A DNA stretch of 64,000 bases from Gammaproteobacteria bacterium (GCA_050298595.1 JBNKUM010000067.1:2976-66975), one strand, 5' to 3'; shown: positions 8,830-60,640, counted from the first letter of the stretch. Numbers and translations: made by a program. The notes: generated by a model not told the origin, from the letters alone.

Positions 8830-8889
8830 ATTCACTTAACTCAGTGCCAAACATAAGGTCTGCCACCTAAGGACATACTACTTTCACCA

Positions 8890-11800: not shown

Positions 11801-12552
11801 ACCGAAAAGACTGGCTGCCTGCTGGCGTCACTGATGGCACGTACGGCAGTACTGCTGTCGATGGTCTCGCCATCATCGTTGGTGGGCCGGTTCAAGATGA
11901 AAACAACTGTATCTGACCCAGCGAGCCTGACTCTCTCCTCAATGTGCGAGAGTACTGGATCATCGAAAAGTTCAAGTTCAGAGGGCCTGCTCCGTTGTTC
12001 ATTGTCCTTTTGCAGACTCGCGAAGTTTCCACGGAAAGTCGGCGACTGCTCACCGAGTACAAGTACACGCCGCCCGGGCAGCAACTTATCAATGATCTCC
12101 AGCGTTTCCTTGAACGCAGCCTCTTCGGCAACACCCGTCAGGTTTTTGTATCGGTCCCGAATGTTGGGACTGAGGCCATTAATTCCACAGAAAACCACAG
12201 GTACGTCGGGCGCCAGCAGTGGACGCACGTCCAGCACAAAATCCAGAGCATTGTTGTCCGTTACCGCAATGACCTCAGGGGGATTCCTCTTGAATTTGCT
12301 CTCAAGGGTCTGCAGGAGATCCTGACGCATGAGATCCTTTTGCTCGCGGTAGCGTAAGGAATCGAGATACTCGATGTGCAGGTCAACCGGTATACCGTTA
12401 TTGGCAAGGGCGTTGATGAACCCCTGATGCTGAGAATCGGTCCAGGGCATGCCGCTGTGATAGGAATGGATTAATAGCACACTGTGACTCTGAGCGACAG
12501 CCGTTGCCGACAGCCCCAGCAGAGCAATGAACAAGACAAGTAGTCGAATCAT
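8890..12552 (-). CDS. Hybrid sensor histidine kinase / response regulator with an N-terminal periplasmic COG2984-type substrate-binding-like domain, multiple PAS domains and a C-terminal conserved tail
   Basis: 1220 aa in the order: signal peptide, periplasmic binding-protein-like domain, TM, four or more PAS/PAC repeats, HisKA ([17 protein letters not shown]), HATPase (GTGLGLAIV), REC (MDRRMPVMDG … D-x-Y-V-S-KP), then an 80-aa tail. Confidence 0.85.
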   Translation of the reverse strand: MIRLLVLFIALLGLSATAVAQSHSVLLIHSYHSGMPWTDSQHQGFINALANNGIPVDLHIEYLDSLRYREQKDLMRQDLLQTLESKFKRNPPEVIAVTDNNALDFVLDVRPLLAPDVPVVFCGINGLSPNIRDRYKNLTGVAEEAAFKETLEIIDKLLPGRRVLVLGEQSPTFRGNFASLQKDNEQRSRPSELELFDDPVLSHIEERVRLAGSDTVVFILNRPTNDDGETIDSSTAVRAISDASRQPVFSVWDYMFGDGIVGGKLTSGEAHGEVAAQQVIRILNGEEADSIPIEWESANRYLFDYEQLQRFDLQDKSLPEGSVVINRPVNFYELYRDKVVAVAVVFTLLLFFGIGMLLLNRSLTESRNLLDDIVDNLPVMVFLKRASDLSFIRFNRTGQELLGLSREELLGRHDYDFFPKEQADFFISKDRDVLTQTGVVDIPEEPVETVNGTRILHTRKLALRNKEGLPVYLLGISEDITERKQTEHQVTLLSFALNSVHEAAFLIDERARFHFVNEEACRILGYSHDELLASGVEDIDPDWPAVRWPEHWRDLQEKRSITFEGRHRAKDGRIIPVEISANFIEYAEQSYNLALVRDISERKLAEQTLVARERDYRTLIENLPDCITRFAPDCRHLFVNPSVEKTFGIPRKTFIGKSPTQIGKPGDDAINYELEQSILQVFATAQTQKLQMQWQTVDGPRTFEVLYAPEHDEEDKVVSVLGIAHDITYQKQAEETLRRHKDELEELVQQRTDELRLARDAAEAANKAKSTFLANMSHELRTPLNAILGFSQLMRKDQSLNSSQRENLEIINKSGDHLLKLINDVLEISKIEAGKQQLEISTFDLHELVREVSDMMRLKAQQKGLQLELDQSSAFPRYIKGDEARLRQILVNLVSNAVKFTKQGSVTMRLRSKHNAHHHLLIEVEDNGPGISKKDQRRLFKPFEQLSAGTSSQEGTGLGLAIVRQFVQLMGGSVSVESKPGQGSLFRVDLPLNEPDEAEMIRLSAETHGAVAGLAPGQATRRILIAEDQRDSQILLARVMTDLGLDVKVAQNGEECIQIFQQWRPDLILMDRRMPVMDGDEATRRIRELPGGDQVKVVAVTASALKEEEETLRASGMDDYVSKPYRFDEIYHILEKQLGLTLVYAEEESDHEAALVAPPSDQLRELYQLADIGQVFEIQELASRLQAENEVYISFARKLNKLAKGFDLEGISTFIKQYLK

Positions 12553-12642
12553 CTGATGGTTCTCCGTCTAGACCGATACACCTTTACCAAAGGTGAAAAG
12601 TTCTTTGATTTAGGTTCCTAATAATTTTTCGCCTGTCAAAAG

Positions 12643-12773
12643 ATTAACCACGAAGTACACAGAGCGCACGAAGAAAAACCTCTATTAATCTTCGTGACCT
12701 CGGCAACTGCTCGGCTCAGGCTTCCTGCGTTGTTCTAATTACGGGCATCCTGCCCTAATTCGTGGTTAATTAG
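12643..12773. repeat. Hairpin element flanked by inverted repeats (gattaaccacgaa … ttcgtggttaatt), in the leader/promoter region of the 1220-aa kinase
   Basis: Perfect 12-13 bp terminal inverted repeats about 105 bp apart; an internal hairpin gggcatcctgccc; shares a 5' motif with 7151-7200. Confidence 0.5.
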
Positions 12774-12908
12774 ATTTTCGAGTCATTGCATTCACAACGA
12801 CAGCCTTGAACGAATTAATCGAAGACTCCTTGGTAGTAAAATATATCACTCCGTCATCTAACAATTTAAAATTCAAGAGTTCAGACGCGTGGGTCAATGC
12901 GCCAATAG

Positions 12909-13973
12909 CTACAAAACCACCGGGAATTCCCCATGATGGTAAAAGGCATCTAGCTGATTGCTGCAGGATTCCAGATCAAAGTTGTTATCCGCCAGCCATT
13001 CATCATTGTAGTAGGTATGCTGGTAGCGCTCGCCACTATCGCACAACAGTGATACCACGCTGCCACTTTGACCCTTTTTATGCATCTCTGCCATAACCTG
13101 GAACGATGCGTAAACATTTGTCCCTGTCGATCCTCCACAACGTCGGTTGAGTAATTTCTGCAGGTAGTGGATGGTGGCTATAGAGGCTTCATCTGGAACC
13201 TTTATCATGTTGTCGATAACGCCAGAGATGAATGATGGCTCTACCCTTGGACGACCGATGCCTTCTATACGCGAGCCGCTGTTGATGGCGATGGAAGTAT
13301 CGCCGGTTTTGAAGTAATCGTAAAAAACCGAGTTTTCAGGGTCGGCTACACAGAGCTGGGTATTATGTTTTTTGTAGCGCACATAGCGGCCTAAAGTGGC
13401 CGAGGTGCCTCCGGTGCCAGCACTCATGACCAGCCAGCTGGGTTCGGGAAAGCGTTCGCAGGACATCTGCGCGAATATCGAATCAGCAATATTGTTGTTA
13501 CCGCGCCAGTCGGTGACACGCTCGGCATTAGTGAATTGATCGACATAGTGTCCGTTTAAATCCTCTGCCAGTCGTCTGGCTTCGGTATAGATATCGCCAT
13601 TGTCTACCAGATGGCATTCGCCCTGATAGAAACAGATCTGGCCGATTTTTTCCTGCGAGGTGCCGCGTGGCATTACCGCGATAAAACGCAGGCCTAACAG
13701 CTTGGCAAAATAGGCTTCGGAAACCGCCGTACTACCGGATGAGGATTCAATAATTGCAGTATCTTCATTGATGTTACCGTTACACAGCCCATACAGGAAC
13801 AGGGATCTGGCGAGTCGATGTTTCAGACTGCCGGTAGGGTGAGTGGATTCGTCTTTCAGATAAAAATCTATCTCCGGCAGGGCGGGTAGATCGACCCGGA
13901 TCAGATGGGTATCGGATGAGCGTTGAAAATCGGCTTCTATGGTAGCTATAGCCTGGTTGACCCATTCTCGCAT
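12909..13973 (-). CDS. PLP-dependent cysteine synthase family protein (CysK/CysM/CBS-like fold type II)
   Basis: PLP-lysine region (…[12 protein letters not shown]…) and glycine-rich loop ([14 protein letters not shown]) typical of the fold-type II tryptophan-synthase-beta superfamily. Confidence 0.7.
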
Positions 13974-14041
13974 TTTTGTCCTCGGTTTGTATACTGACTA
14001 ATTTTTAATTGCAATGATCTTTTATTGCAACTCAGTATAGT

Positions 14042-15244
14042 ATGCCCGCTAACGAAACTAAACAAGAACGCTATATGTTTAACCGCAATCAATTAATCAT
14101 TGTTTATTGCACCATCATTGCATTTGCGATTTTGTACGAGCATCAACCCCTGCTGCCGCTGCTCGCCAAACAATGGGGCCGCTCCTTGAGTGACGCTGCA
14201 CTGCTGACTACGGTAACTATGATTCCACTGGCCCTGGCCCCTTTGATTTACGGTTACTTTCTGGAACGTATTTCATCGCGCCACATGTTGATAGGCGGCT
14301 TTTCTCTATTACTGATCACTCAGGCAATTCTATCAACTGCGCCCGGTTATTCATGGTTTCTGGTATTACGTGCGCTTGAAGGTCTGCTTTTGCCCGCTAT
14401 CTTTACTTCACTGATGACCTATACCTCGGCCAGTGGAGGCTCTCATCATTCGCGCCGCAATATCAGCTTTTATATCGCAGCCACTATCATAGGCGGCTAT
14501 TGTGGTCGTACTCTGACCGGTCTGGTGACCGATCTGTATAACTGGCAAACCTCGTTCTGGATGTGGTCAACCCTGGCTCTGGTCGCTGTCCTCAGTCTAC
14601 TCAAGCTGGATACCGATCCTCGCGGTCAACTGGTTAAGATATCCCTGCCCGAAATACGAAAACTGATCCGTAAGCCGGTGAACCGAGAAGGTCTGATCGG
14701 TGCATTCCTGCTATTTTTTGTCTCAGCCGCGATGATGAACTTCCTGCCCTTTCGCATCTTTGAACTCAAGCCCGATATAACTACAGGTACCATGTCGCTG
14801 GTATATACCGGTTATCTGATAGGTGCTGTTATTTCTGTATTTTCTACCCGTATCATTCCCTTATTCGGTAGTGAAAAGCGTACGCTGCTCACTGCAGCGG
14901 TTATATACGCCACAGGAGCCTTGCTGTTTATGGCTGAACAGATTGCAGTACTTTATCTCGCCATGTTTGTGATGATGGCTGGGATGTTTAGTATCCACAG
15001 CGTGCTTTCAGGCTATCTCAATCATCTGGAATCTTCGCGCAAGGGTATGATTAATGGTTTGTATGTATCCTGTTACTATAGCGGTGGTGTTCTCGGGTCT
15101 TTTGTTCCAGGCCTGCTATACCAATCGGCAGGATGGGTCGCTTTTTGCCTGCTATTGATTAGCCTGATTGGCCTGCTGGGTGTTATGATCTTGCTGATGC
15201 CGAGTTCTGGCAATCACGCAAGTGATAAACTGGTGAGCAGATGA
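14042..15244 (+). CDS. MFS transporter
   Basis: 400 aa with about 12 predicted TM segments and an MFS-like loop motif (GR.LTG…D). Confidence 0.7.
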   Translation: MPANETKQERYMFNRNQLIIVYCTIIAFAILYEHQPLLPLLAKQWGRSLSDAALLTTVTMIPLALAPLIYGYFLERISSRHMLIGGFSLLLITQAILSTAPGYSWFLVLRALEGLLLPAIFTSLMTYTSASGGSHHSRRNISFYIAATIIGGYCGRTLTGLVTDLYNWQTSFWMWSTLALVAVLSLLKLDTDPRGQLVKISLPEIRKLIRKPVNREGLIGAFLLFFVSAAMMNFLPFRIFELKPDITTGTMSLVYTGYLIGAVISVFSTRIIPLFGSEKRTLLTAAVIYATGALLFMAEQIAVLYLAMFVMMAGMFSIHSVLSGYLNHLESSRKGMINGLYVSCYYSGGVLGSFVPGLLYQSAGWVAFCLLLISLIGLLGVMILLMPSSGNHASDKLVSR

Positions 15245-27286: not shown

Positions 27287-30100
27287 TTAGTCTTTCAATG
27301 CTTTTAATATGGTCGTGTAGTCAAAGTTCCTGGCGAGCTGAGTCAGTTTGCTCTGTAATTCCTGGTCGTGCATCGAAACCTGCTGGATGACCGCCTCAAT
27401 GCGCTTGGACTCCAGGCTTTCTAGCACTTCAACGAACTCATTGCGCAGTGCTTCAGGCAGGCTATTCAACATCTGCGGCGTTAACGATATATCCGGTTCT
27501 ATTACGTCTGATTCCACAGCGCTCTCATAAAGATATTTCACGCCTAGCTGTCTTGAAAGGCAATCATAAATCTCGCCCGGTCGGTAGGGCTTGCGCACAT
27601 AGTCATCCATGCCACTAGCAAGCATTTCGTCCCGCTCTTCGTCAAACGCCGATGCAGTCACTGCAGCAATCTTAACCTCCTTGCCACCCGCTAATTCACG
27701 GATGCGCCGTGTCGCCTGTATGCCATCCATCACAGGCATGCGTCTATCCATCCAGATGAAATGTGGATGCCAGCTCTCAAACAGTTGTACCCCCTGCTCA
27801 CCGTTCTCGGCTATCCTGACCTTAAAACCAACAGATTCCATAAACCTGCTCAGTAGCAACTGATTATCACGCTGGTCTTCCACGATCAAAATACGATACT
27901 CGCCCTGGTCAGGGGCCAGCGCCATCACTTCGTCCTTGACGATCACCTGCTCTGCCATAGTAATATCTGCCTCCTGTGCTTCAATCAGGGGTAGGTCGAG
28001 CCTGAACAACGAGCCTTTACCTGGAGCACTTTCCAGCCAGATATTCCCGCCCATCATCTTTACAAATTGACGCGTAATCGTTAATCCCAGCCCGGTGCCT
28101 TTATTGGTACCCTGTTCGCCAAGTTGCACAAAAGGCTCGAAAACCTTTTGCTGGTCTTCAACCGCTATGCCAATGCCAGTGTCCTCTACATCGATCAGCA
28201 GATGAGAGATCTTATTATCCTTTGTGTCCAGGCGTAGCGTGACCCCCCCCTGCTCAGTATTTTTGATGGCGTTGCTTACCAGATTGATCAGAATCTGCCG
28301 TAGACGGGCCTGATCACCGACAATGAAACGTGGGAATAGAGAACTCTGGTCGATCCTTAATTGCAGGCCTTTGTTGAAAGCACGTTGCTGCATCATGTCA
28401 ATAATATCGCGCACCAGAGTACCCAGATCGAAGGCTGCATTTTCCAGATTCACCTGTCCCGCTTCGATCTTGGCCATATCTAGCACATCGTTAATCAGCG
28501 CCAGCAGATGTTTACCGCTACGACTAATAATTTCGATGTTCTCACGCAGGGATTCGTGTAGTAATGGATTATTGGTCATGAGTTCGGAGAACCCGAGGAT
28601 GGCGTTCAGAGGTGTGCGAAGTTCATGACTCATATTGGCCAGGAAGGCACTCTTGGCACGGCTGGCTGATTCAGCGTGTTCCTTGGCAGATAGCAACTGC
28701 CGATTTGAATCGGCTAACTCGTGAGTACGTTCATTCACCTTTGCCTCCAGGCCCCCAATTAATGCATGCAATTGACCTGCAATATTATTAAAGACGGATG
28801 TCAGCTCACTGATTTCATCTTCCGATTGGGGTGCTATTGGATGCTGTAGATAACGTCTCAGAGCAATACGCTGGCTATACTCTCTATCTACTTCTTCTTC
28901 CACCATCTCAGGTTTCTCCAGACCCATCGCAGATACTGCCCTGGTAAGCGCCCTGATCGGTGCAACGATTCTACTGATCAAGGAGTATCCGACGGCACCT
29001 CCCAACACAAGAATAAACACAGACGCGGCAATAATGCCCATGACGGTTTGGCGGATGGTGGCAATGGTGTTTTCCCTCGAAAGTGCCTGACTCAGAATAA
29101 GCGAGCTACCATCCTCTGCTATCTGCCAGGGCATAGAAGCCTGGTAGTAGGAATCCCCTCCTATATTTACGGTATGCAACTGGATAAGCGGGTCTCTTTG
29201 CGCAGACAAAACTTCAGTTGGTGTAGCCAGATCTACCAATTGAACACGCTGCTGCCCATCTGCGGAGATAATAGCCGGCAACAAACCCGTCTTCTCAGTA
29301 AGATTTTGCAGAAAGCCTTTGTCAAATACCTGAGTAAAAACAAACATACCGATCCTGACCGGTAAGTCCTCCTGCGTTAGCTGGGCTTGCAAAGCTGTCG
29401 TAGGCGTGGCTATGCTCAGGTTTTCGGCAATGACTTCGTTAAAAGACTGGCGAATCATACCTTGAATCGGCACTATCACGTGCAGCTCGATAACCTCTTG
29501 TGCAGGAAAATCGAAGCTTACCGTCACCCTGTCCACATTGGGAAAGTGGCGATGGATTGATCCTGGCAGTGGGATTTCTGACCAGTTACGCCAGTCATCC
29601 AGCGGTACCTTACCATTTCTGTACTGCTGAATCCCAACCACCCTAGTTTGACTATCGTGTCGCTTTATCATGCCCGCCGCCTGCGGCGTCACAAAATGTG
29701 ACAGGTCATCATCTAGATACACCGCCACACTGGACAGGCGTGCGGAGAGCAGGATTAACTGTAAGCGGTTTAAGGATGTGACCCGGTTAAGACTTACAGC
29801 GCTGTCGAGAGGAGCGCTAGGTTGATTTTTCAGCTTGAGTAGCTGGCTGTATAAAACAGCCATATCGCTAAGATTCTTTTCGTCACGCGCGGCTTGCATA
29901 GACACATTAGACATACGGTTGCGCATTTCCTGTAGATCGTTTTGAAATACGATCAACTCACGTGACAATCGGTTATAGGCTTCTGCCTGACTCTCGCGGT
30001 TAATCAGGTATGAAGCCAGCAGGGCATTAAGCAGCGTAACCGCTAACAGAAATGCCGCAAAGATAGCCAGTAGCTTGTATTTAATACTTACAATTTTCAC
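27287..30100 (-). CDS. Hybrid sensor histidine kinase / response regulator (copy 1) with a periplasmic sensor domain of about 320 aa
   Basis: Order: TM, periplasmic domain, TM, HAMP-like region, HisKA ([17 protein letters not shown]), HATPase (GTGLGLTI), REC (…MDRRMPVMDG…DDYVRKP), then a conserved tail of about 80 aa. About 55% identical to the kinase at 31766-34588. Confidence 0.85.
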   Translation of the reverse strand: MKIVSIKYKLLAIFAAFLLAVTLLNALLASYLINRESQAEAYNRLSRELIVFQNDLQEMRNRMSNVSMQAARDEKNLSDMAVLYSQLLKLKNQPSAPLDSAVSLNRVTSLNRLQLILLSARLSSVAVYLDDDLSHFVTPQAAGMIKRHDSQTRVVGIQQYRNGKVPLDDWRNWSEIPLPGSIHRHFPNVDRVTVSFDFPAQEVIELHVIVPIQGMIRQSFNEVIAENLSIATPTTALQAQLTQEDLPVRIGMFVFTQVFDKGFLQNLTEKTGLLPAIISADGQQRVQLVDLATPTEVLSAQRDPLIQLHTVNIGGDSYYQASMPWQIAEDGSSLILSQALSRENTIATIRQTVMGIIAASVFILVLGGAVGYSLISRIVAPIRALTRAVSAMGLEKPEMVEEEVDREYSQRIALRRYLQHPIAPQSEDEISELTSVFNNIAGQLHALIGGLEAKVNERTHELADSNRQLLSAKEHAESASRAKSAFLANMSHELRTPLNAILGFSELMTNNPLLHESLRENIEIISRSGKHLLALINDVLDMAKIEAGQVNLENAAFDLGTLVRDIIDMMQQRAFNKGLQLRIDQSSLFPRFIVGDQARLRQILINLVSNAIKNTEQGGVTLRLDTKDNKISHLLIDVEDTGIGIAVEDQQKVFEPFVQLGEQGTNKGTGLGLTITRQFVKMMGGNIWLESAPGKGSLFRLDLPLIEAQEADITMAEQVIVKDEVMALAPDQGEYRILIVEDQRDNQLLLSRFMESVGFKVRIAENGEQGVQLFESWHPHFIWMDRRMPVMDGIQATRRIRELAGGKEVKIAAVTASAFDEERDEMLASGMDDYVRKPYRPGEIYDCLSRQLGVKYLYESAVESDVIEPDISLTPQMLNSLPEALRNEFVEVLESLESKRIEAVIQQVSMHDQELQSKLTQLARNFDYTTILKALKD

Positions 30101-30184
30101 TATTAATTAGCATCAGTAATCGATGCACGTCCCTCAATCAATCAGCTGATAAAAAACAGGGGCTCGTTGCACATCCGTTCAACA

Positions 30185-31546
30185 CTACCGATGAGCATAA
30201 CCGTTATGATCTTGAATGTCCTGATCAATCTTTTCGGCTGCTTTACTGAGTTCGGCCTGCACATCAGCCCCTTTAATTATATTATCTACCGCCTCGGCGA
30301 AGACTTTGGTGATAGTTGCATAGGCTGGCGTGAGGGGACGAGGCACAGCCCAACCGGCTTCTATCTGTTGAACATACACGTTTAAAGGGCCACCTGGCTG
30401 GTAAAGCTCTGACCTGGCAAATGCCGATTTACGCGCCGGTACACCAGGGTGAATACCTGTCCAACGCACAATCTTGTCGGGTTGCAGAATATAGTCCAGG
30501 ATCGCCCAGCTCCCTTCAGGATTCTGGCAGGAGCTGGTGATACCAAAATTCCAGGCACCCAAACCAGTTTTGGGTCCATTGCCAAAGTCAGGCATGGGGA
30601 TGACAACCAAATCTTCGCCCAAAGCATCCGCATAGCTGCTATAGGTCCAGTGTCCTACCCAGGAAAGCGCCGCTTTGCCAGAAGCAAAATCCGTATCTCC
30701 CTGTGGGCTGGGGTTAGCCCAGCCCTTCTGGAACCAGCTCTGGAAATGCTGCATAGCTGTGACGGATTGAGGTCCATCCAGTACGCCTTTGGCAGACTGG
30801 TAGTTATTGCGATCAATCAAGTCACCGCCGAAAGACTGCAGGATGGGTGAAAAACCATAGGTAAAGAATTCACCGCGCCCATAGTTGATTTTCATATCCA
30901 GTGGATATTCAACGTCTGGGACGGCGGCCAGTTTTTCTAAAGCCGCTTCAAACTCAGCCAGATCCCATGGCTGCTGGATGGTAGGTATGCGCACGCCAGC
31001 TGCCTTTAGGTACTGGCGATTGCCATACATCGCCAGACCAGAGTCAACTATACCCAGTGTATACAGATTATTATTGTAGGTTCCCTGGGCAATGATAGAG
31101 GGCAGGAAATCGGCCTTCATCTGTGCTGACACAAAGCGGTCTATGGGTTGCAGGTAACCCAGCCAGGCCAGATATGAGACCATAGGTCCGTCAAAGAAAA
31201 GCAGGCAGGGCAGATCACCTGTGCGCCCGGCAGCCAGGATGCGGTCGGTGTAAATGCCTTCTGGCACCAGTGTCATCTCGGCTGAGTAGCGATCCTGCTC
31301 CTTGTTAAAGTCCTTCAGATTGAGTTCCATTGCTTTTAAGGCATTACCGGTACCGGCATTGAACCATACCGTCACGATTTGATTCCTGCTAACTGCGGCT
31401 GATGGAGGCTTAATCTTAGTGGGCGCTGGTTCAGGCGCTATACTGGCTGGTGGGCTTTTAGCAGTGGGTTCACTGGGTGGATCGCAAGCCGTTAGCACGG
31501 ATGCTAGCATGAATAAAATTATTAGATAACTAACCTTCTTGTGCAT
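30185..31546 (-). CDS. Periplasmic solute-binding protein, ABC family 1 (sugar-type), lipoprotein; partner of hybrid kinase copy 1
   Basis: Signal peptide with lipobox (LTAC); typical family-1 binding-protein length and motifs; about 65% identical to the copy at 34615-35982; directly upstream of, and co-directional with, the kinase. Confidence 0.75.
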   Translation of the reverse strand: MHKKVSYLIILFMLASVLTACDPPSEPTAKSPPASIAPEPAPTKIKPPSAAVSRNQIVTVWFNAGTGNALKAMELNLKDFNKEQDRYSAEMTLVPEGIYTDRILAAGRTGDLPCLLFFDGPMVSYLAWLGYLQPIDRFVSAQMKADFLPSIIAQGTYNNNLYTLGIVDSGLAMYGNRQYLKAAGVRIPTIQQPWDLAEFEAALEKLAAVPDVEYPLDMKINYGRGEFFTYGFSPILQSFGGDLIDRNNYQSAKGVLDGPQSVTAMQHFQSWFQKGWANPSPQGDTDFASGKAALSWVGHWTYSSYADALGEDLVVIPMPDFGNGPKTGLGAWNFGITSSCQNPEGSWAILDYILQPDKIVRWTGIHPGVPARKSAFARSELYQPGGPLNVYVQQIEAGWAVPRPLTPAYATITKVFAEAVDNIIKGADVQAELSKAAEKIDQDIQDHNGYAHR

Positions 31547-31765: not shown

Positions 31766-34588
31766 TTATTCAGCCTTATTTAGTGCTCTTAATATAGCAG
31801 GGTAATCAAACTTACTGGCGAGCTGGCTGAGTGCCCTGTGTAACGCCGGGTCAATCGCCTCGGTGCGCTGGATCACTGCCTCAATGCTCTCGGGCTCCAG
31901 ACTTTCCAGTACCTCAATAAGCTCACTACGTAACACTTCTGGTAACTTTTCCAGCATCTGTGGCGTTAATACTACATGCTCATCTTGCGCCTTTGACGCA
32001 GTACTTCCGTACAGATATTTAACGCCCAGGTGTTTTGATATCACATCGTAGATTAGCGTCGCTCTGTATGGTTTGCTCACGTAATCGTCCATACCGATTT
32101 TTAGAATTTCATTGCGCTCCTCTTCAAAGGCCGAGGCGGTCACCGCGACAATCTTTACCTCTTTGCCGTCAGGCAATTCCCGGATACGTCGTGTTGCCTG
32201 CATGCCATCCATCACCGGCATATGTATATCCATCCAGATTAAATGTGGATGCCAGCTCTGAAACAGTTGTACACCCTGCTCACCATTTTCCGCCAGCTTT
32301 ATCTGGAAACCAACACTCTCCATAATTTCAGAAAGAAGGAGTTGATTGTCGCTCTGGTCTTCGACGATCAGGATACGGTATTCGGGTTGTCCCGGCGCAA
32401 GGCTAGTCACAACCCCCCTGCCAATCTGATCCGGTTTGCTGATATCCTGTTCCAGTGCTTCCTGCAAGATCAGTTCTATGCTGAATACCGTGCCTTTATC
32501 AATCTCGCTTTGCAGGCTGATACTGCCACCCATCATTTGCACGAACTGGCGCGTAATAGCCAGCCCGAGTCCCGTGCCCTTACTGCTATCCTTTTCACCC
32601 ACCTGTACGAAGGGGTCGAAGATAAGTTGTTGATCTTCAGGGCTGATACCTATGCCTGTATCCTCAACCTCGATCAGCAGATGAGATATTCTGTTTTGCT
32701 TTGTGGCCAGACGCAGAGTCACGCCCCCCTGCTGGGTAGCTCTGATGGCATTCCCTATCAGATTGATCAGAATCTGGCGCAGGCGCGACTCGTCGCCTAC
32801 GATGTAACGAGGGAACTGCGATGACTGGTCGACATGTAATTGCAGATCCTTATTTTCCGCGCGTATGCGCATCATATCGATAACATCTCGTAGCATACCG
32901 CCCAGATCAAAAGGCTCATTCTCCAGTTGTACCCGCCCGGCTTCTATCTTGGCCATTTCCAACACATCGTTGATCAGCGTTAGCAGGTATTCGCCACTAC
33001 GATTAATAATATTATTATTGTGCTGTAATCTTTCAGGCAGTGATGGATCCTGGTTCATCAGGTTGGAAAACCCGAGGATAGCGTTCAATGGGGTACGCAG
33101 TTCGTGGCTCATGTTGGCAAGGAAAGTACTCTTGGCTCGGTTGGCAACTTCGGCCTTTTCTTTGGCCGCCTGTAACTCCTGAGTGCGTTCGTCAACGCGT
33201 TGCTCCAGTGTTTCAAACGATTGCCGCAGTTGCCTGATCATGGCATTGAAGGCGGCGGCCAGTTGCCCTACTTCATCACTGGCTTTAAGGTCAATCTCGA
33301 TCAGCTTATCCGAGACTACAGGCGTATCTTTCGCTGTGGAACTATTAATCTGGGTGTTCAGACCGATGCGTGAAACGCTTTCCGTTAAGGCCACAATCGG
33401 TTTGACCAGACGATCTAACAGTATATAGCCCAATATCCAGACCACGATCAAAACCAGAGTAGCCAGGCCAATGAGTGCAGTAACGGTTTCTCGTATCTTC
33501 TGGGAGGCGCTCGCCCCTGATTGCGTAAACCCGATAATCAGCCGGGCTTTATCGCCATAGTGCAACAGGGTCAGGGCCTGGTAATAGGTTTCATCATCCA
33601 CGCTCAGAATCCTTTGTTGCATCGGTTGTTCAGGTGTCGCCTGACTCTGTTGCACCCATTGCACCAGATCTTCCGGCTTCATCTTCATTTTGACGATTTC
33701 GATTTGATGCATCCCATCTAACGAATACAGTGCTGGTAATAAACCACTTTTCTGCGCAATGCCTTGCAAAAATGCCTGGTCAAAGACCTTCTTGAATACA
33801 AAGGCACCAATGAGAACTGGTTTGATTTGGTCGGGATTTTTCTGGTTAAGCGCTTCCTGAGAAGCGATGACTGGATTGTTGACCACAAATCCTTCGGAGG
33901 AACCCAGGGTAATATTGTTTCGCATTACCGTTCGAGTAATTGCCTGTACCGGGACAACGATTTGCAATACCAACGCCTGCTGTTCAGAAAAATAAAAGGA
34001 AATCATGGGTTGCCTGGGTAATGTAATTTGAGATGAGATTAATGGAGGAGGGGTACCCAGCGGCCATATTGGCCAGTTATTGAACTTCATCTCTCCGCTC
34101 TGATCTGGATCAGTTTTAATCAGCCTCTGCTGCCCCTCCCGAAACACACTGATGCCAGCCTCAGTAGTAGTCACGAAATGACTTAACTCATTGCCCGTGT
34201 AAACGGCGGCGCTGGAAAATCCGGCCGTACGCAGAATAATCTGAAACCGATTCAGTGAAATGGTTTTATCGAACAGGAATCCGCGTTCATTCTTTGATGC
34301 TAGCTCAGGATAGTTCTTAAATTGCTGTGTTTTTGCATACAGCGTAGCCAGATCACTCAAGTTATCGATTCCGGTAACATTTTTTTCGGCAACCCTGCGC
34401 AGATCAGTTATCGTTTCCTGCAACTCGTACTGTAACAGGTCGGTCTGTTTGGTCAGGCTGCTAAACGCCTCTCGCTCGCTTTGTTGCGTGGTCAGGTAGA
34501 TGGCGAGTGCTACATTAAGCCCAGCGATAATGATCAGGGCCGTGCTAAACGCCAGCAGCAATTTCGTCTTGATACCCGATATGTTCAC
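31766..34588 (-). CDS. Hybrid sensor histidine kinase / response regulator (copy 2)
   Basis: Same architecture as 27287-30100 (His[19 protein letters not shown]; [13 protein letters not shown]…DDYVSKP; conserved tail). Confidence 0.85.
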
Positions 34589-34614
34589 TGTAACTTGTCA
34601 GCTTTTTCTGTGCA

Positions 34615-35982
34615 CTATTTGATCGGATAGCCGCCGTGATCTTTTATATCCTGGTCAATTTCCTGCGCCGCCCGGTGAAGTTCCGTTTTGACGTCTGCGC
34701 CATTAATAATATTCTCCATCGCTTCGGCAAAGACCTTTGAGATCACGGCATACGCTGGAGTGATCGGACGAGGAATGGCGCGCTCGCTTTCCAGTTGTTG
34801 TGCAATCAAATGTAAGGGGCCTGATTCACCATACAATTTTGACTGTGCCAGCACTGACTTCCGGGCCGGTGGGCCTCCGTTTTCGTTCGTCATACGTAAC
34901 ATTTCCTGCGGGGATAGCAGGAACTCGATGAATGTCCAGGCGCCAGTGGGATCCGGGCAATTGCTGGATATCCCCCAGCTCCAGCTACCCATCGCGGTTT
35001 TTGACCCATACCCAAAATCAGGCTGCGGTAACAACACCAGATCTTCCCCCAGAGCCTCGGCATGCGGTTTGTACATCCAGTGCCCCACCCAGGCGAGGGC
35101 CGCTTTTTTAGATCCGTAAAAATCGTCGTCCGTGGTCCTGGATTTGCCGGCCCAGCCCTTTTCAAACCAGCTCTGAAAGTGTTGCATGGCCTCAATCGAC
35201 TGGGGACTATCCAGCACGCCAGTTGCATGCTGGTAGCTGCTGCGATCAATCAGATCACCACCAAATGACTGGATGATGGGCGTAAAACACCATGAATAAA
35301 ACTCGCCAGGACCATAATTAATTTTCATATCAATTGCATACTCTACGTCAGGCAGGGCGGTCAGTTTTGCCAGCGCCTCTTCAAATTCGACCAGATTCCA
35401 CGGTTTTTCAAAGGTCGGTATGCGGATTCCAGCCGCGTTCAGATAGCGGCGATTGCCGTAGATTACCAGCCCTGAGTCAAACTGTCCGAGGCTATAGAGC
35501 TGTCCGTTGAAGGTTCCCTGGGTGAGAATCGAGGGCAATAAGTCGGCTTTTAGATCTGCTGAAACAAAACGGTCAATCGGCTGCAGATAGCCTGGCCATG
35601 CAAAGTTATAGAGGTATGGACCGTCAAACTCCAGGGCGCAGGCCAAACTACCAGACTGTGCGCTGCCAATGATCCGGTCAGCATAGATTTCCGGTGCAAT
35701 CGGCACATATTCTATGGTGTATTTATTTTGAGCCTGCTCAAAGGCTTCCACCGACTTAGCAAACACATCACCTTCTATGCTGCCAGGTAACATATGCGTC
35801 CAGACGCTGATCACTTTGCGCCTGTCTGTCTGGGGCGAGGGTGTTGAAGGTAGCGCTGTTGGTACTGAAGAGGGAGCGGCTAAAGCAGTGGATGTAGTCA
35901 AGTCCGAAATCCTGCAAAAAGTTAGTATCATGGCCACCAGAATCAGCTTATTTTGATAAAGTATTTTCTTTCTCATTTTCAC
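34615..35982 (-). CDS. Periplasmic solute-binding protein, ABC family 1 (copy 2), partner of hybrid kinase copy 2
   Basis: Signal peptide; paralog of 30185-31546; the 27-bp gap to the kinase start implies co-transcription. Confidence 0.75.
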   Translation of the reverse strand: MKMRKKILYQNKLILVAMILTFCRISDLTTSTALAAPSSVPTALPSTPSPQTDRRKVISVWTHMLPGSIEGDVFAKSVEAFEQAQNKYTIEYVPIAPEIYADRIIGSAQSGSLACALEFDGPYLYNFAWPGYLQPIDRFVSADLKADLLPSILTQGTFNGQLYSLGQFDSGLVIYGNRRYLNAAGIRIPTFEKPWNLVEFEEALAKLTALPDVEYAIDMKINYGPGEFYSWCFTPIIQSFGGDLIDRSSYQHATGVLDSPQSIEAMQHFQSWFEKGWAGKSRTTDDDFYGSKKAALAWVGHWMYKPHAEALGEDLVLLPQPDFGYGSKTAMGSWSWGISSNCPDPTGAWTFIEFLLSPQEMLRMTNENGGPPARKSVLAQSKLYGESGPLHLIAQQLESERAIPRPITPAYAVISKVFAEAMENIINGADVKTELHRAAQEIDQDIKDHGGYPIK

Positions 35983-41329: not shown

Positions 41330-43030
41330 CTGGCACAGCCTGTGTGAAAACCCTACTTAGGAGTATAATAAGTCATTCAAATAGACAGGTGAAACAATGA
41401 CTGGATTCATTGAAGGCGTAGCCAGAATACAAGCCACCTTATTTCCTGAATTACTTGACGATTACATCAGCGAAGAAAATCCCGTTCGCGTTATTGATGC
41501 CTTTGTCGATAATCTTGACCTCGATAAATTGGGTTTCAAAACCTACCCAGCAATAACCGGTCGTCCTGGTTACCACCCATCCAGCATGCTCAAGCTGTTT
41601 ATCTACGGTTACCTCAATCGTATCCAGTCTTCTCGTCGTTTAGAAAGGGAGTCGGGGCGTAATGTCGAGTTAATGTGGTTACTCGGTCGTCTATCTCCCG
41701 ACTTTAAAACCATAGCTGACTTTAGAAAAGATAATGGTAAAGGCATTAAAAATACCTGTCGAACCTTTATCGATTTGTGCAGACAATTAAATATGTTCAC
41801 CGATGCTATTGTCGCCATTGATGGCAGTAAATTTAAAGCAGTCAATAGTAAAGAAAATAATTACACACCCAAGAAACTACAATTTCATATAGACCGGGTT
41901 GAGAAGCATATCGAAGACTATTTACAACAACTCGATACCGCTGACAGGGCAGAAAAACCAGAGACTGATGGCAGGTCTATCGAAGATAAAATCACCTGGC
42001 TTAAGAAAAGACTCGCTGAGTTAAAGGCACTGGAAGGTGAGGTGGACAATCATCCTGACAAACAACTATCAACAACGGATCCGGACTCTCGATTAATGAA
42101 AACACAAGGGATGACCAGAGTGGTTTGTTACAATGTACAAACGGCCGTTGACCCCAAAAACCACCTGATTGTAGCCCATAAGGTAACGAATACACCTGAT
42201 CGTGGACAACTCTGCGGTGTAGGTAAACTGGCTCAAGACGCACTGGATACTAAAGGGATCACTGTTATTGCTGACAAAGGTTATTACAGTGGCCAGGATA
42301 TCAAAGATGCTCAGGATGCGGGTATGACGGTACTTGTACCCAAAGGTGATACTTCTGGCAGCGAGAAAAAAGGCATATTTAACCGATCCCGGTTCGAATA
42401 CGATGCAGAGCAAGATAGATATATTTGCCCCGCCAAACAAGAGTTATCCTATCGATTCACTTCGGTTGAGAAAGGACTATCGTTAAAGAAGTATTGGGCC
42501 TATGAACCCACTTGTAGGGCTTGCTCGATGAAACCACAATGCTCTAACAGTAATCAGGCTCGTAGAATCACTCGTTGGGTTCATCAGGATAGATTGGATC
42601 AAATGGACAAGTTACTCTCTTCTCAGCCAGAGTGCATGCTCATCAGAAAGCAAACCGTTGAACACCCTTATGGCACGATTAAATGCTGGATGGGATCAAC
42701 TCATTTTTTAACGAGACAATTCAAAAATGTCAGCACCGAAATGAGTCTGCATGTTTTGGCTTACAATTTAAAACGCATGATGTCGTTATTTGGACAGGCT
42801 GGATTAGTCGCCGCAATGACAAAGGTATAGGGATTAATGGCCCATAGTAATTGCATCTATAAAATACGTCGATATGACGTGTTTATTCTTTTGTGTAAGC
42901 CAGACAATTTTCTTATTCATAAAAAGGACTCTGAAAATAAGGAAGCTCAGGACTTAGCATAAGAAGTCTGAATAATGACTGGAGGACGAAATTATTAAGA
43001 TAATAGTTTTTACACAGCCTGGGCACATAC
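41330..43030 (+). mobile_element. IS1182-family insertion sequence (about 1.7 kb) with imperfect terminal inverted repeats
   Basis: Left end …ggcacagcctgtgtgaaaaccc (about 41328-41350) versus right end ttttacacagcctgggcaca (about 43008-43030; its reverse complement gtgcccaggctgtgtaaaa matches). A single transposase ORF lies inside. Confidence 0.6.
41397..42830 (+). CDS. IS1182-family DDE transposase
   Basis: 477 aa; the N-terminus (…LFPE.LDDYI…NPVRVIDAFVD.LDL…GF…) and the downstream DDE region are typical of IS1182/IS5-superfamily transposases. Confidence 0.8.
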   Translation: MTGFIEGVARIQATLFPELLDDYISEENPVRVIDAFVDNLDLDKLGFKTYPAITGRPGYHPSSMLKLFIYGYLNRIQSSRRLERESGRNVELMWLLGRLSPDFKTIADFRKDNGKGIKNTCRTFIDLCRQLNMFTDAIVAIDGSKFKAVNSKENNYTPKKLQFHIDRVEKHIEDYLQQLDTADRAEKPETDGRSIEDKITWLKKRLAELKALEGEVDNHPDKQLSTTDPDSRLMKTQGMTRVVCYNVQTAVDPKNHLIVAHKVTNTPDRGQLCGVGKLAQDALDTKGITVIADKGYYSGQDIKDAQDAGMTVLVPKGDTSGSEKKGIFNRSRFEYDAEQDRYICPAKQELSYRFTSVEKGLSLKKYWAYEPTCRACSMKPQCSNSNQARRITRWVHQDRLDQMDKLLSSQPECMLIRKQTVEHPYGTIKCWMGSTHFLTRQFKNVSTEMSLHVLAYNLKRMMSLFGQAGLVAAMTKV

Positions 43031-56232: not shown

Positions 56233-56283
56233 TCGTCCCTGAAAAAGTTTTCAGGGCGCGTTCCATAGTGTTGTGAATAACTA

Positions 56284-56412
<129 letters not shown>

Positions 56413-56537
56413 TCAGTTAGAAAAAGAGCAAACAGATAACTTGTTGAAAAATAGGTAAAAATCAATGCGATTGCCTGCAAATTCTGTTCACTCATTGGGC
56501 AACCTGATAAAGCTATAAGCATTTGTGAAAAATACAT

Positions 56538-56585
56538 GTCCAACTGCGGAATCCAGGATTATTTTGCCAATCCTCGAATTGTCCG
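56538..56585. repeat. Palindromic REP-like unit (caactgcggaatccagg … cgaattgtcc), same family as the units flanking repeat copy A and the hairpin at 62652-62680
   Basis: gtccaactgcggaatccaggatt matches the reverse complement of 6853-6882 and 7072-7087. Confidence 0.5.
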
Positions 56586-56745
56586 TAGAGAGCTATACGG
56601 AATAGCTACTTATCGCTGCTTTACCAAAAAGTAATTGCTGAGTTTAATTGACGCAATATGCATATATCTTAAATAATTAATGCGACATGATATTTAATAA
56701 GCTACAGTACGCAATATAAACAACAATTACACATATGTCGACATC

Positions 56746-58236
56746 ATGAAAGATACGAATCTACCTCCATCTGTCCTCCACAATCGGCTCGATAGCCATG
56801 GCAAAGCTATAGCCTGGGACACTCAGTCATTTCATGACGCACTGATCGCTGCTGGTGCCAACCACTCGTTGCGGACTTCGGAAAGAGAGCTGGAGAATCT
56901 ACTCCCTGCTGCCGTATCGGTGGACAATCTGATCGATGAGACAGGTCGTCAAGCTCTGAAGCTGGTCGTCAGGCAACTGCTGGATGATGTTAAACGCAAG
57001 CGCCACCAGTCCTTGATCCTGCAGCTTGTTGCCTTGCCTGAATCCGGATATCTGTTGCTGGCAAACGATGGTCGTTCTGGCAGGAGATGGATTTTTATTA
57101 ATGAGCTGGATCATCAGACGCTGATAGATGCACTGGACTTATTGGCCGCCGGAAAAACTACATTGTTCTGGCCACATGGCGAGGTGACAAAATATTGCAG
57201 AGATCTGGTGCGGGTACAGGGCAGCATCAAACTCGATTTAGCATCAGGAACTGCTGCATCTCTGGCTACCGTAATATACCGTGAGCCCCTTACGCTACAG
57301 ACCCAGACTCGCCAGAGTGCCGAGTTGATCGAGAAGGCACAACTCTCGCACCTGGACAGGTTAGAGGCCGAGAGCATCTATATCATCCGGGAGGTTGTTG
57401 CCCAGGCGGAAAACCCTGTCATGCTCTACTCAATCGGCAAAGACTCATCTGTGATGTTGCATCTGGCCAAAAAGGCGTTCTACCCCAGCCCGCCTCCATT
57501 CCCGTTGATGCATGTAGATACGCGCTGGAAATTCACCGCTATGTATGACTTTCGGGATCGCATGGCAGAAGAAGTAGGTATGGATCTGATTGTTCACACC
57601 AATCCTGAAGGCATAGAAAAAAATATCAACCCCTACGACCATGGCAGTGCGCTACACACCGACGTGATGAAAACTCAGGGCCTGAAACAGGCACTGGACA
57701 AATACAAATTTGATGCTGCCCTTGGTGGGGCCAGAAGAGACGAGGAAAAAAGCAGAGCGAAGGAAAGGGTCTTCTCGTTCAGATCCACAGCCCATCGCTG
57801 GGACCCGAAGAACCAGAGGCCAGAGCTGTGGAATCTATACAACGGGTACAAGAAAAAGGATGAAAGCATCCGCGTGTTTCCTTTGTCCAACTGGACAGAG
57901 CTGGATATCTGGCAATACATATATCGAGAGAGCATACCCATCGTTCCTCTTTATTTCGCGGCAGAACGGCCAGTTGTTATGCAGGATGGCATGCTGGTGC
58001 TGGTGGACGATGACAGAATGCACCTGTTTGAAGATGACAAGATTGAAATCCGCAAGGTACGTTTCCGTACACTGGGTTGCTATCCGCTGACCGGTGCCGT
58101 CGAATCAGAGGCGGACAATCTCTCCTCTATCGTTCTTGAACTGCTACAGAGCAGAACCAGCGAACGAGAGGGTCGAGCCATAGATAGTGATTCATCTGCA
58201 TCCATGGAAAAGAAAAAACAGGAGGGCTACTTCTGA
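56746..58236 (+). CDS. cysD: Sulfate adenylyltransferase subunit 2 (CysD) carrying an in-frame N-terminal extension of about 190 aa of unknown function
   Basis: The C-terminal 300 aa or so are near-collinear with E. coli CysD (LEAESI.IIREV…[24 protein letters not shown]…HVDT.WKF…[14 protein letters not shown]…RTLGC.PLTGA…). The open frame continues about 575 bp upstream with no stop; the first ATG is at 56746. Confidence 0.8.
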
Positions 58237-60104
58237 TGAACGAGCTTATTAAACAGGTCGATGACTACATAGAAACTCAGTCAAAACTTGACCTTCTCAG
58301 ATTCATCACTTGCGGTAGCGTGGATGACGGCAAGAGCACACTTATCGGCAGGATGCTGTATGATGCTCAGTTACTCTTTGAAGATCAGGTTAGCGCTCTT
58401 CAGAGCGATTCCAGAAAGATGGGAACCCAGGGGGGCGATATAGACTTCGCGTTGCTGGTCGATGGACTGGGAGCCGAACGGGAACAGGGAATTACCATTG
58501 ATGTAGCCTACCGCTACTTCAATACCGACAGACGAAAGTTTATCGTGGCGGATACACCGGGGTACGAACAGTACACCCGTAACATGGTAACCGGGGCCTC
58601 TACTGCAGACGTCGCTGTGATACTTGTGGATGCATCGCAGGGGATTCTTAGTCAGACCCGCAGGCACTCATTCATCGCTTCGCTGCTGGGTATCAAGCAT
58701 GTGGTCCTTGCGATCAACAAAATGGATATAGTCGACTATAAAGAAACGATATTCGATCAAATCCATGAAGCCTACCTGAATTTTGCCGAGCTACTGAACT
58801 TTGAGGCTATCACAGCCATTCCGCTATCGGCACTGAAGGGCGACAACGTTATTCAGCGCTCCAAAATGACAGACTGGTATCACGGCCCAACCTTGCTGGG
58901 TTTCCTGGAAACCGTTGATGTTCGAAAATCCCAGCTAGACTATCCATTCCGCTACCCGGTTCAGTGGGTTAATCGTCCAAATTCTGAATTCCGTGGTTTT
59001 TCTGGTACTGTCGTCGCTGGCAGTATTGCGCGCGGCGAAGCAGTCAGAGTGCTGCCTTCTGGAGAAGTCGCCAATGTGAAGGAAATCGTACTGTATCAGG
59101 ATCAGCTCAGCCGCTGTGTTGCTGATCAGTCCGTTACCATTACCCTGGACAGGGAGATCGATATTTCACGCGGAGACATACTCGTTACCGCTGATGACCC
59201 CTGTGAAGTATCCGACCAGTTTGAGGTTACCCTCGTCTGGATGGATCAGGAAGAAGGTTTTGCCGGTCGCTCCTACCTGATGAAAATTGGCACCCAGCTG
59301 GTTAATGCCACAATCACAGACATCAAATACAAGTACGACATCAATACACACGACCGGCTCTCCTCCAAGACATTGCACCTCAATGAAATTGGTCGCGCCA
59401 CCATAAGTCTCGACAAAGCAGTACCTTTTGAGGCCTACGAAAAATGCAGGCAAATGGGAGCCTTCGTACTAATTGACCGCTACCGTTTCGCCACGGTATC
59501 AGCCGGGATGATTTCTTTCGCCCTGCGTCGCGCGAGTAATGTACACACCCAGGCCCTCACTGTTGACAGAGCAGCACGGGAACGGCTGAATAATCACAGC
59601 GGCAAGGTCATCTGGTTTACAGGGCTGAGCGGATCAGGAAAGTCGACGCTGGCTAACGCCATGGAACAACAGCTGTACAAACGGGGTATTCGCACCTACA
59701 TACTGGATGGTGACAATGTCCGACAGGGACTCAACAAGGATCTAGGCTTTACCGATGCAGACAGAGTCGAAAATATCCGGCGCATTGCCGAGGTGGCCAA
59801 ACTCATGGTTGATGCTGGTCTGGTGGTGATGACCGCCTTCATTTCTCCATTCCGTTCAGAGCGCGACATGGCGCGCTCTCTGTTCGGCGAAGGTGAGTTT
59901 ATAGAGGTGTTTGTCGATACGCCACTGGCGATAGCTGAGGAGCGAGATCCGAAAGGACTGTACAGGAAAGCTCGTCGTGGAGAACTACCCCACTTTACCG
60001 GCATAGACAGCCCTTACGAAGCACCGGAAGCGCCCGAACTTGATTTGAATACAGGAAGCTTATCGATTGACGAATGTGTCGAGAAGTTGCTGAAATTATT
60101 CTGA
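58236..60104 (+). CDS. cysNC: Bifunctional sulfate adenylyltransferase subunit 1 / adenylylsulfate kinase (CysN-CysC fusion, NodQ-type)
   Basis: N-terminal translational-GTPase domain ([13 protein letters not shown]…DTPGYEQY…NKMD), then a C-terminal APS kinase with P-loop ([11 protein letters not shown]); start overlaps the cysD stop (CTGATG). Confidence 0.9.
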
Positions 60105-60109
60105 TGAAT

Positions 60110-60640
60110 AAGTCCTACTACAGAGAAACGCATCTCTAAAGCATGGCAAAAGTACTGTCCTGGTGGGTGACGGCAACGCTCACCAGGGGCCTCATTGCGT
60201 TCTTTATAACCAGTGATTTTATACGGCTCTGACCATCCAGTGATCATGGCAAAGGATACCCTTGAAATGAGGCAGGATGCCGGTTTCATCGGCCTGAGCC
60301 AGTTTGTCTTTAGTCAACTGTTCAAATTGGAATAAACTCGACGATATAGGGATCATCCGTCTTTTTCAGCATCTTGCCCATATACCCTGTTTGAGCTCCT
60401 GAGGGTTTGTCTGATTTCTTGTGTGAGGTCTTTAAACGATTTGGATCACTCGACGGTGGCTTGCTGCTGTTTTTACTGGTCAGTGTTGTGCGGTTTATCA
60501 GCACAGAAACTAACAGCAGCAGAACCTTTAAAGCGGCTCGAACAGAAGATGACAGTCCAAGTTCCTGGTCAATCAGTTGCCGGGCATTATGGAGAGTCTT
60601 TTCAACCTCAATCGAATCTATTTTCAATGGATACACCCGT
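60110..60640 (-). pseudogene. Degraded IS66-family transposase remnant
   Basis: The minus-strand frame encodes …KNSSKPPSSDPN…KSDKPSGAQTGYMG… (the characteristic IS66 TnpC N-terminal motif). After the stop, a second frame reads …LPHFKGILCHDHW… (DDE-region-like). Multiple frame breaks and far too short for an intact gene. Confidence 0.55.

Follow-up and report, generated by a model that had tools for sequence, protein, structure and literature searches.

A conserved N-terminal domain of an undescribed family on the sulfate adenylyltransferase subunit CysD

CysD carries an N-terminal extension outside the CysD profiles

In a 64,000-nucleotide stretch of DNA from a gammaproteobacterium (GCA_050298595.1, JBNKUM010000067.1:2976-66975; the whole stretch is referred to here as the window), we identified a cysD gene whose product, the small subunit of ATP sulfurylase, carries an additional N-terminal segment of approximately 182 amino acids. 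As judged from sequence comparisons, this segment is an undescribed domain family; the proteins that contain it are already in public databases, where the domain is unannotated. The same comparisons indicate that it is a real, translatable and selectively maintained coding sequence that is linked only to sulfate-activation genes and is able to exist as a polypeptide of its own. In most Proteobacteria, sulfate enters cysteine and sulfated metabolites by way of CysD and CysN(C), which have been treated as a two-gene system.

The open reading frame (ORF) occupies positions 56746 to 58236 on the plus strand and encodes 496 amino acids. As the original prediction had described, it starts with the ATG at position 56746, which in the ORF listing is the earliest ATG, GTG or TTG codon 3' of the in-frame upstream stop. 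The CysD profiles matched only the C-terminal two thirds of the protein, namely, residues 183 to 496 for NF009214 (NCBIfam, CysD equivalog; 532.1 bits versus a cutoff of 413), residues 203 to 496 for TIGR02039 (497.2 bits versus a cutoff of 396.6), and residues 223 to 450 for PF01507 (Pfam; E = 1.7e-58, score of 198 versus a cutoff of 22.5). The PP-loop motif SxGxDS is present as S229-I-G-K-D-S234 within the PF01507 match. Because the NF009214 match begins at residue 183, the extension comprises approximately 182 residues (nucleotides 56746 to 57291); the presence of an extension had been predicted correctly, whereas its length had been put at about 190 residues. CysD proper, that is, residues 183 to 496 and the stop codon, is encoded at positions 57292 to 58236 of the same strand.

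Single-domain CysD has some 300 amino acids, and the profiles span 294 to 317 positions; residues 1 to 182 of the 496-residue protein lie outside every one of them. Described CysDs start at the LSHLDxLEAES helix, whereas the window CysD adds a 180-residue domain that matches no profile. The catalytic part is that of an ordinary CysD. Judged by these matches, the protein is therefore a CysD member by its catalytic domain, with a non-canonical architecture that differs from the one described. It resembles the CysD-CysN(C) complexes of Escherichia coli (CysDN), Mycobacterium tuberculosis and Pseudomonas (CysD-CysNC) in that a full-scoring CysD with a PP-loop is followed by a fusion of the GTPase subunit to adenosine 5'-phosphosulfate (APS) kinase. 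This next gene, cysNC (58236 to 60104, plus strand), encodes 622 amino acids with the Pfam domains GTP_EFTU, GTP-eEF1A_C and APS_kinase; its start codon and the cysD stop codon share 1 nt (TGATG), and the sequence AGGAGG is located upstream of cysNC. CysD-CysNC enzymes carry out GTP-coupled APS synthesis and then the synthesis of 3'-phosphoadenosine 5'-phosphosulfate (PAPS), and the window enzyme is expected to do the same.

Coding character and conservation of the extension

At the local base composition, a stop-free run of 192 codons has a probability of 1.5e-4, in agreement with the earlier claim that so long an open frame is unlikely to arise by chance. The GC content of the extension was 51%, like that of cysD, and 36% in the 513-nt spacer upstream. 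The GC fractions at its three codon positions were 0.62, 0.41 and 0.52 (GC1 > GC3 > GC2), and similar patterns were observed for the cysD body and cysNC. The closest separate homologue, a 79%-identical protein encoded in a gammaproteobacterial metagenome-assembled genome (MAG; locus L005), shares 81% protein identity with the extension, at a synonymous divergence (dS) of 0.94 and a nonsynonymous divergence (dN) of 0.12. The dN/dS ratio was 0.125 for the extension as compared to 0.061 for the CysD body. The coding check that had been suggested for positions 56746 to 57320 thus revealed a coding-like GC pattern and a low dN/dS. Furthermore, six contigs of different assemblies encode the identical 496-residue protein, and the N termini of the homologues align starting at residues 1 to 7. 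We consider it almost certain that the protein genuinely includes the domain.

The alternative is that cysD starts internally, at an in-frame TTG at position 57325 (codon 194), with a chance or decaying frame upstream, or that a stop codon was recently lost in this genome. Such an artefact would be compatible with an ATG at 56746 that has no Shine-Dalgarno sequence and with the split forms that exist elsewhere (see below). However, the TTG likewise has no Shine-Dalgarno-like sequence upstream; the original prediction had noted this weak in-frame codon and erred only in its position, given as 57324. As had also been stated, the canonical CysD start lacks an ATG. Codon 226, directly before the PP-loop motif and well within the region covered by the CysD profiles, is the next ATG in frame, and no Shine-Dalgarno-like sequence was found upstream of it. 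The improbability of the open frame, its dN/dS ratio, the identical protein on six contigs, and the fused form in all nine genome loci and all of the best 120 clusters listed (described below) equally argue against an artefact. Owing to this conservation, it is already contradicted, and we regard it as extremely improbable.

The extension defines a domain family

The original prediction had found no recognizable family for the extension, and the profile searches agreed. Residues 1 to 192 alone had no match in NCBIfam, and their sole Pfam listing, Se-cys_synth_N (E = 0.08), was under the cutoff. Residues 1 to 182 had no significant match in Pfam-A, NCBIfam, the sequences and folds of the Protein Data Bank (PDB), or BFVD, and 26 diverse family members matched no common Pfam family. 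The only sequence-profile match in the PDB, to the native chain of the knotted helical protein HP0242 (E = 0.04), was treated as compositional. An origin by internal duplication was rejected, given that the alignment of the domain profile to the CysD body and to CysNC with hhalign gave a probability of <1%; the extension showed no similarity to the CysC region of the window CysNC in this comparison. Among the papers searched, none described an extra segment or domain at the N terminus of CysD.

A word-indexed search with the extension retrieved a single protein, from a Hoeflea MAG, whose N-terminal part shares 36% identity with the extension and likewise continues into CysD; repeating this search with a profile gave four matches. 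Because these searches returned so few matches, an exhaustive profile search was needed, in which a two-sequence profile of the extension was compared to 1.84 billion protein cluster representatives. This search retrieved 150 representatives at E ≤ 1e-3, including 75 at E ≤ 1e-10. A CysD segment directly follows the domain in 38 of 151 proteins (the 150 representatives and P0001), and most of the others are short metagenomic fragments that are too short to show it. One match of 1,367 amino acids with five matched stretches (P0133) is a repeat protein with a recurring ANDGxHGRELW sequence and was rejected as a spurious motif-level match. Its many F(V/T)ANDGxHGRELW(V/I)TDGT units match via the ANDGRxGRRW motif, a resemblance that is striking and probably coincidental. 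Another match, P0016, in which the domain is followed by a tail resembling the alpha subunit of succinyl-CoA ligase, was judged to be an assembly chimera, as were several further matches with adapter-like tails.

The genome scan, for which the two-sequence profile and one genome per species were used, resulted in nine alpha- and gammaproteobacterial loci. These are found in one gammaproteobacterial MAG, two Azotimanducaceae MAGs, one Pseudomonadales MAG, Neptuniibacter sp. QD37_6, Hoeflea poritis, a Hoeflea MAG, an alphaproteobacterial MAG, and Nitratireductor sp. XY-223. The domain is in frame with CysD in nine of nine, the CysD being either complete or interrupted by an insertion sequence (IS). 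No match was obtained when the extension was compared to 72,556 plasmids by tblastn.

With the full 496-residue protein as the query, the best 120 clusters listed all had 473 to 530 residues, at a query coverage of 92 to 100% and an identity of 63 to 89%. The length of CysD in these relatives, a check proposed with the original prediction, is thus that of a protein with the extension. The names given to these 120 clusters are limited to "sulfate adenylyltransferase subunit CysD" or "subunit 2," and they contain no Pfam domain other than PF01507. The suggestion of a genuine new domain on the ATP sulfurylase small subunit is in this way supported by composition, purifying selection and the wide conservation of the fused architecture. 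The sequences define a domain family that can be added to Pfam or InterPro, and they would improve annotation even if the domain were inert.

Predicted structure and conserved residues

An AlphaFold2 model of residues 1 to 200 was built on an alignment of 106 sequences and had a predicted local distance difference test score (pLDDT) of 94 and a predicted template modeling score (pTM) of 0.86. It replaced a single-sequence model of the full protein that was unusable (pLDDT of 36). In the model, the N-terminal subdomain (residues 1 to 87; positions 56746 to 57006, plus strand) consists of a short beta-hairpin and three helices (residues 26 to 35, 42 to 52, and 72 to 85). It is followed on the same strand by an alpha/beta subdomain (residues 88 to 175; positions 57007 to 57270) with strands at residues 88 to 97, 101 to 107 and 113 to 118, a helix at 123 to 134, a strand at 139 to 143, a helix at 147 to 158, and short strands at 162 to 164 and 170 to 173. 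The linker to CysD (residues 176 to 182; positions 57271 to 57291, plus strand) is poorly conserved, varies in length among homologues and has a lower model confidence. The block of residues 181 to 190 is a lower-confidence stretch with a pLDDT of 66, and the N-terminal helix of CysD begins at residue 183. The model is best explained by a domain that would fold autonomously and be connected to CysD by a short flexible linker.

In an alignment of 26 sequences, the conserved residues of the N-terminal subdomain were W24, R/K43, E46, R47, L53-P54, D64, E65 and R86. In the remainder, Q93, the motif A-N-D-G/A-R-x-x-R-x-W (residues 106 to 115), P-H-G (residues 143 to 145), R152 and Y178 were conserved. 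In some members, S, T or R takes the place of Q93 in the first strand, and S, C, Q, A or R that of H144 after the fourth strand. The net charge is near zero in most family members.

The order of the secondary structure elements and their aligned lengths, rather than a superposition of residues, suggest a beta-beta-beta-alpha-beta-alpha-beta arrangement with an RNase H-like topology for residues 88 to 175. We also considered whether the extension might be a nucleic acid-binding or nuclease module, in which a degenerate integrase- or transposase-like helical domain precedes an RNase H-like core and CysD acts as a "trigger enzyme" on its own operon. Its best structural neighbors, none of them significant, are retroviral integrase cores, IstA, Mos1 transposases, PIWI and the RNase H-like domain of Prp8, and helices lie ahead of the core in the AlphaFold2 model, as in transposases. 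However, Foldseek searches of the PDB and BFVD returned nothing below E = 0.01. As compared to RNase H-like domains such as the retroviral integrase core, DDE transposases, PIWI and one ASKHA half-domain, the window domain is shorter (its core comprises some 90 residues) and has neither the expected acidic catalytic residues nor a profile relationship. There was no conserved acidic triad or invariant acidic residue at the RNase H-like catalytic positions, which were assigned from secondary structure and not from superposition. Instead, these positions hold the variable Q93 and H144, so that membership in the RNase H-like catalytic superfamily is unsupported. Neither the window domain nor the 26 members matched the rve, DDE or RNase H families of Pfam, and no helix-turn-helix (HTH) match was obtained. 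The near-zero net charge of most members and the lack of conservation between the upstream DNA of the window and that of L005 also speak against a nucleic acid-binding role, which we consider very unlikely. More generally, the lack of profile matches to enzyme families and the variability of Q93 and H144 at the acidic positions give no sign of catalysis, as far as sequence comparison can indicate.

The domain occurs fused to CysD, as a separate protein and fused to APS kinase

The domain was found in three arrangements. In this window and the nine genome loci, it is fused in frame to CysD via a short linker of variable length. In three further loci (L014, 6001 to 7024; L022, 433 to 3668; L023, 1859 to 2839), it is encoded by a separate gene of 185 to 187 codons with its own stop, which is located 21 to 28 nt upstream of cysD. 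The cysD of these split loci has a normal length (297 residues in L022), starts with MNHLDQLEAES, and is followed by a cysN-like gene with an APS kinase P-loop. Orthologs with an internal cysD start, as envisaged in the original prediction, thus do exist, and in them the region just upstream encodes the same domain; among the loci examined, we found no ortholog with an unrelated or out-of-frame sequence upstream of cysD. In the third arrangement, the domain is fused to APS kinase in a protein of 376 residues without CysD or GTPase (P0037; L020, 197 to 1327, and L021, 71 to 1201). Two independent contigs, one from JGI (29.5 kb) and the other a separate Logan contig, encode this protein in identical form. 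Its residues 14 to 170 align to the domain (E = 4e-18) and residues 182 to 367 to residues 434 to 619 of CysNC, with 65% identity. This alignment suggests an in-frame deletion that removed cysD and the GTPase. A convergent glycogen phosphorylase gene follows the P0037 gene.

The existence of both fused and split forms bears on a further suggestion of the original prediction, namely, that an upstream gene became fused to cysD through the loss of its stop codon. This holds as evolutionary history because both forms exist; it does not hold as a local accident because all of the best 120 clusters listed carry the fusion.

All three arrangements involve sulfate activation. The APS kinase P-loop GLSGSGKS is located approximately 2.3 kb downstream of the N-terminal motif of CysD in every locus that is long enough. 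L013, L014 and L023 have adjacent genes for a CysQ-like PAP (3'-phosphoadenosine 5'-phosphate) phosphatase; in L014 and L023, the CysQ-like Inositol_P gene lies divergently upstream of the split genes. No clearly unrelated partner of the domain was seen; the one candidate was the apparent chimera P0016.

In the Hoeflea MAG (L001/L010, 8001 to 12052), the extended cysD is cut after about residue 311 by two transposase genes (DDE_Tnp_1_4; DUF4096/DDE_Tnp_1). The last 122 residues of CysD, and then cysNC, resume downstream of the transposases, and an ABC2 exporter, a Sulfotransfer_2 gene and an RgpF gene come after cysNC.

A proposed accessory role in sulfate activation

We propose that translation would start at the ATG at position 56746 and result in a two-part protein, in which a short flexible linker connects a conserved domain of about 180 residues with a normal CysD. 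The domain would be an accessory module of the sulfate-activating machinery, which comprises the ATP sulfurylase CysD, the GTPase CysN and the APS kinase CysC. In the course of evolution, it would have been attached to CysD, kept as a small protein encoded directly upstream of cysD, or attached to APS kinase. From this fused, split and CysC-fused pattern, which represents classic Rosetta-stone evidence, we infer that it works physically with CysD and APS kinase. The domain is most likely non-catalytic and probably acts through interactions within the CysD-CysNC complex; it might, for instance, position or regulate the APS kinase domain relative to the site at which APS is produced. It may also respond to an anionic adenine nucleotide such as APS, PAPS or PAP at the conserved Arg/Trp cluster; the Arg/Trp/Asp conservation would suit either a protein interface or a binding site for one of these nucleotides. 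An accessory module that acts within the sulfate-activating complex is, in our view, a reasonably probable explanation, and any one specific mechanism is tentative at best. A regulatory or partner-binding function, as suggested in the original prediction, is a reasonable conjecture.

Several observations weigh against this proposal. No obvious Shine-Dalgarno sequence precedes the ATG at 56746, in contrast to the AGGAGG of cysNC. The P0037 protein may be a deletion remnant, given that its kinase part starts with residues that match CysNC from residue 434 on, upstream of the kinase P-loop. A single ancestral cysD-cysNC operon may be the source of the association with APS kinase, which would then carry no functional signal. 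Finally, the well-studied CysD-CysNC systems of M. tuberculosis, Pseudomonas and rhizobia (NodPQ) work without the domain, which is therefore dispensable for the core chemistry.

A related view, which overlaps with an accessory module in the complex and places more weight on ligand sensing than on bridging, is that the domain is an allosteric sensor that binds PAPS, PAP or APS and tunes ATP sulfurylase. The model for it is the ATP sulfurylase of the Penicillium chrysogenum type, which has an APS kinase-like allosteric C-terminal domain; by analogy, the extension could also be a non-catalytic extra domain that senses a pathway nucleotide. The fungal enzyme differs in that it is a homo-oligomeric Sat and not a CysD, and in that its domain is C-terminal and has a P-loop kinase-like fold. 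The nearly invariant residues R47, R86, N107-D108, R110, R113, W115 and R152 are typical of sites for phosphate or sulfate binding and adenine stacking, the fusion partner of the domain is either the producer (CysD) or the consumer (CysC) of their shared metabolite, APS, and CysQ genes are adjacent in some loci. On the other hand, the searches of Pfam, NCBIfam, PDB sequences and Foldseek found no similarity to known nucleotide-binding families, and the conserved charged residues could equally make contacts between subdomains or proteins. We consider such a sensor possible and rather doubtful.

A broader version of the accessory-module proposal is that the domain is an unrecognized third component of sulfate activation, a regulatory or bridging subunit that is either separate or fused to CysD or CysC, that couples APS synthesis to APS phosphorylation or gates it in response to PAPS, PAP or APS, and that is spread broadly among environmental Alpha- and Gammaproteobacteria; we advance this as a tentative idea. 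Relatives can have the domain as a third polypeptide of its own, unlike the two-component CysD-CysN(C) system. A well-folded and strongly conserved extra domain on the best 120 CysD clusters listed indicates that the control or assembly of sulfate activation may have an unstudied layer. No surprising mechanism is demonstrated by these data, the role being proposed from sequence, model and gene context. The split and fused forms provide a simple experimental handle, as the enzyme can be compared with and without the domain.

Genomic context of extended cysD genes

In the alphaproteobacterial loci and in Neptuniibacter, the extended cysD and cysNC are located within polysaccharide/O-antigen clusters with genes for GDP-mannose dehydratase, ManC, Polysacc_synt_2, Wzz, DegT, Bac_transf and a Wzt ABC exporter; one of these clusters contains a sulfotransferase gene and another cysQ. 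This context, together with the Sulfotransfer_2 gene in L001, is what would be expected if the domain were an adaptor that delivers PAPS to sulfotransferases or polysaccharide sulfation, as a dedicated, NodPQ-like PAPS supply. Both systems have a cysD gene paired with a cysN-cysC fusion, and the alphaproteobacterial loci place this pair among polysaccharide, exporter and sulfotransferase genes. NodP is not known to have such an N-terminal domain. Unlike in NodPQ-type operons, there are no sulfation genes near the window copy: no sulfotransferase and no other sulfur-assimilation or sulfation gene was found among the ORFs scanned in the 64-kb window. Moreover, the neighbors in the window and in several gammaproteobacterial MAGs are unrelated to polysaccharides (rhodanese, luciferase-like monooxygenase, DUF2061, response regulator, rpoD/dnaG), and the domain is therefore not limited to sulfation islands. 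We consider a dedicated PAPS adaptor unlikely.

The gammaproteobacterial MAG loci L016 to L018 (approximately 8370 to 15100) share the order rhodanese, luciferase-like monooxygenase, extended cysD, cysNC, DUF2061, and a response regulator of 451 to 461 residues. This recurrent order suggests a conserved sulfur-related operon or regulon. One further locus adjoins dnaG and rpoD.

In the window, the operon comes after a DUF4154 gene and a CHASE8 hybrid kinase gene, followed by the unusually long AT-rich spacer of 513 nt (56233 to 56745; 36% GC). Except for short motifs such as ATATTTAnTAAG, little of this spacer is conserved in its L005 counterpart. An RNA element or attenuator in this leader was considered and rejected, as there was no Rfam match and no terminator-like site and the leader is not conserved with L005. 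A promoter-like site, TTGACG-18-AATAAT (56648 to 56677, plus strand), lies about 70 nt upstream of the ATG and is a weak match to the consensus (10 of 12 positions); such sites were not enriched over shuffled sequences (4 found versus 2.7 expected). No promoter-like site was found on the plus strand within the extension.

Downstream of the operon are a decayed DUF2061 gene, IS-related DNA, and then mqo and prpF. A gene for a small DUF2061 membrane protein follows cysNC in L003, L006 and L016 to L018; its counterpart in the window (60104 to 60211) is a pseudogene with in-frame stops. The similarity to L003 stops at approximately 60211, where IS-related DNA starts, including a DUF6444 transposase fragment (60322 to 60636, minus strand). 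An intact IS transposase gene (DUF772 and DDE_Tnp_1_6) is located at 41397 to 42830 on the plus strand, which, together with this fragment, suggests that the genome carries several IS elements.

Elsewhere in the window, two tandem paralogous pairs, each consisting of genes for a solute-binding protein (~453 residues) and a hybrid histidine kinase (~937 residues), are encoded on the minus strand at 27287 to 31546 and 31766 to 35982. The two kinases share 49% identity over their full length.
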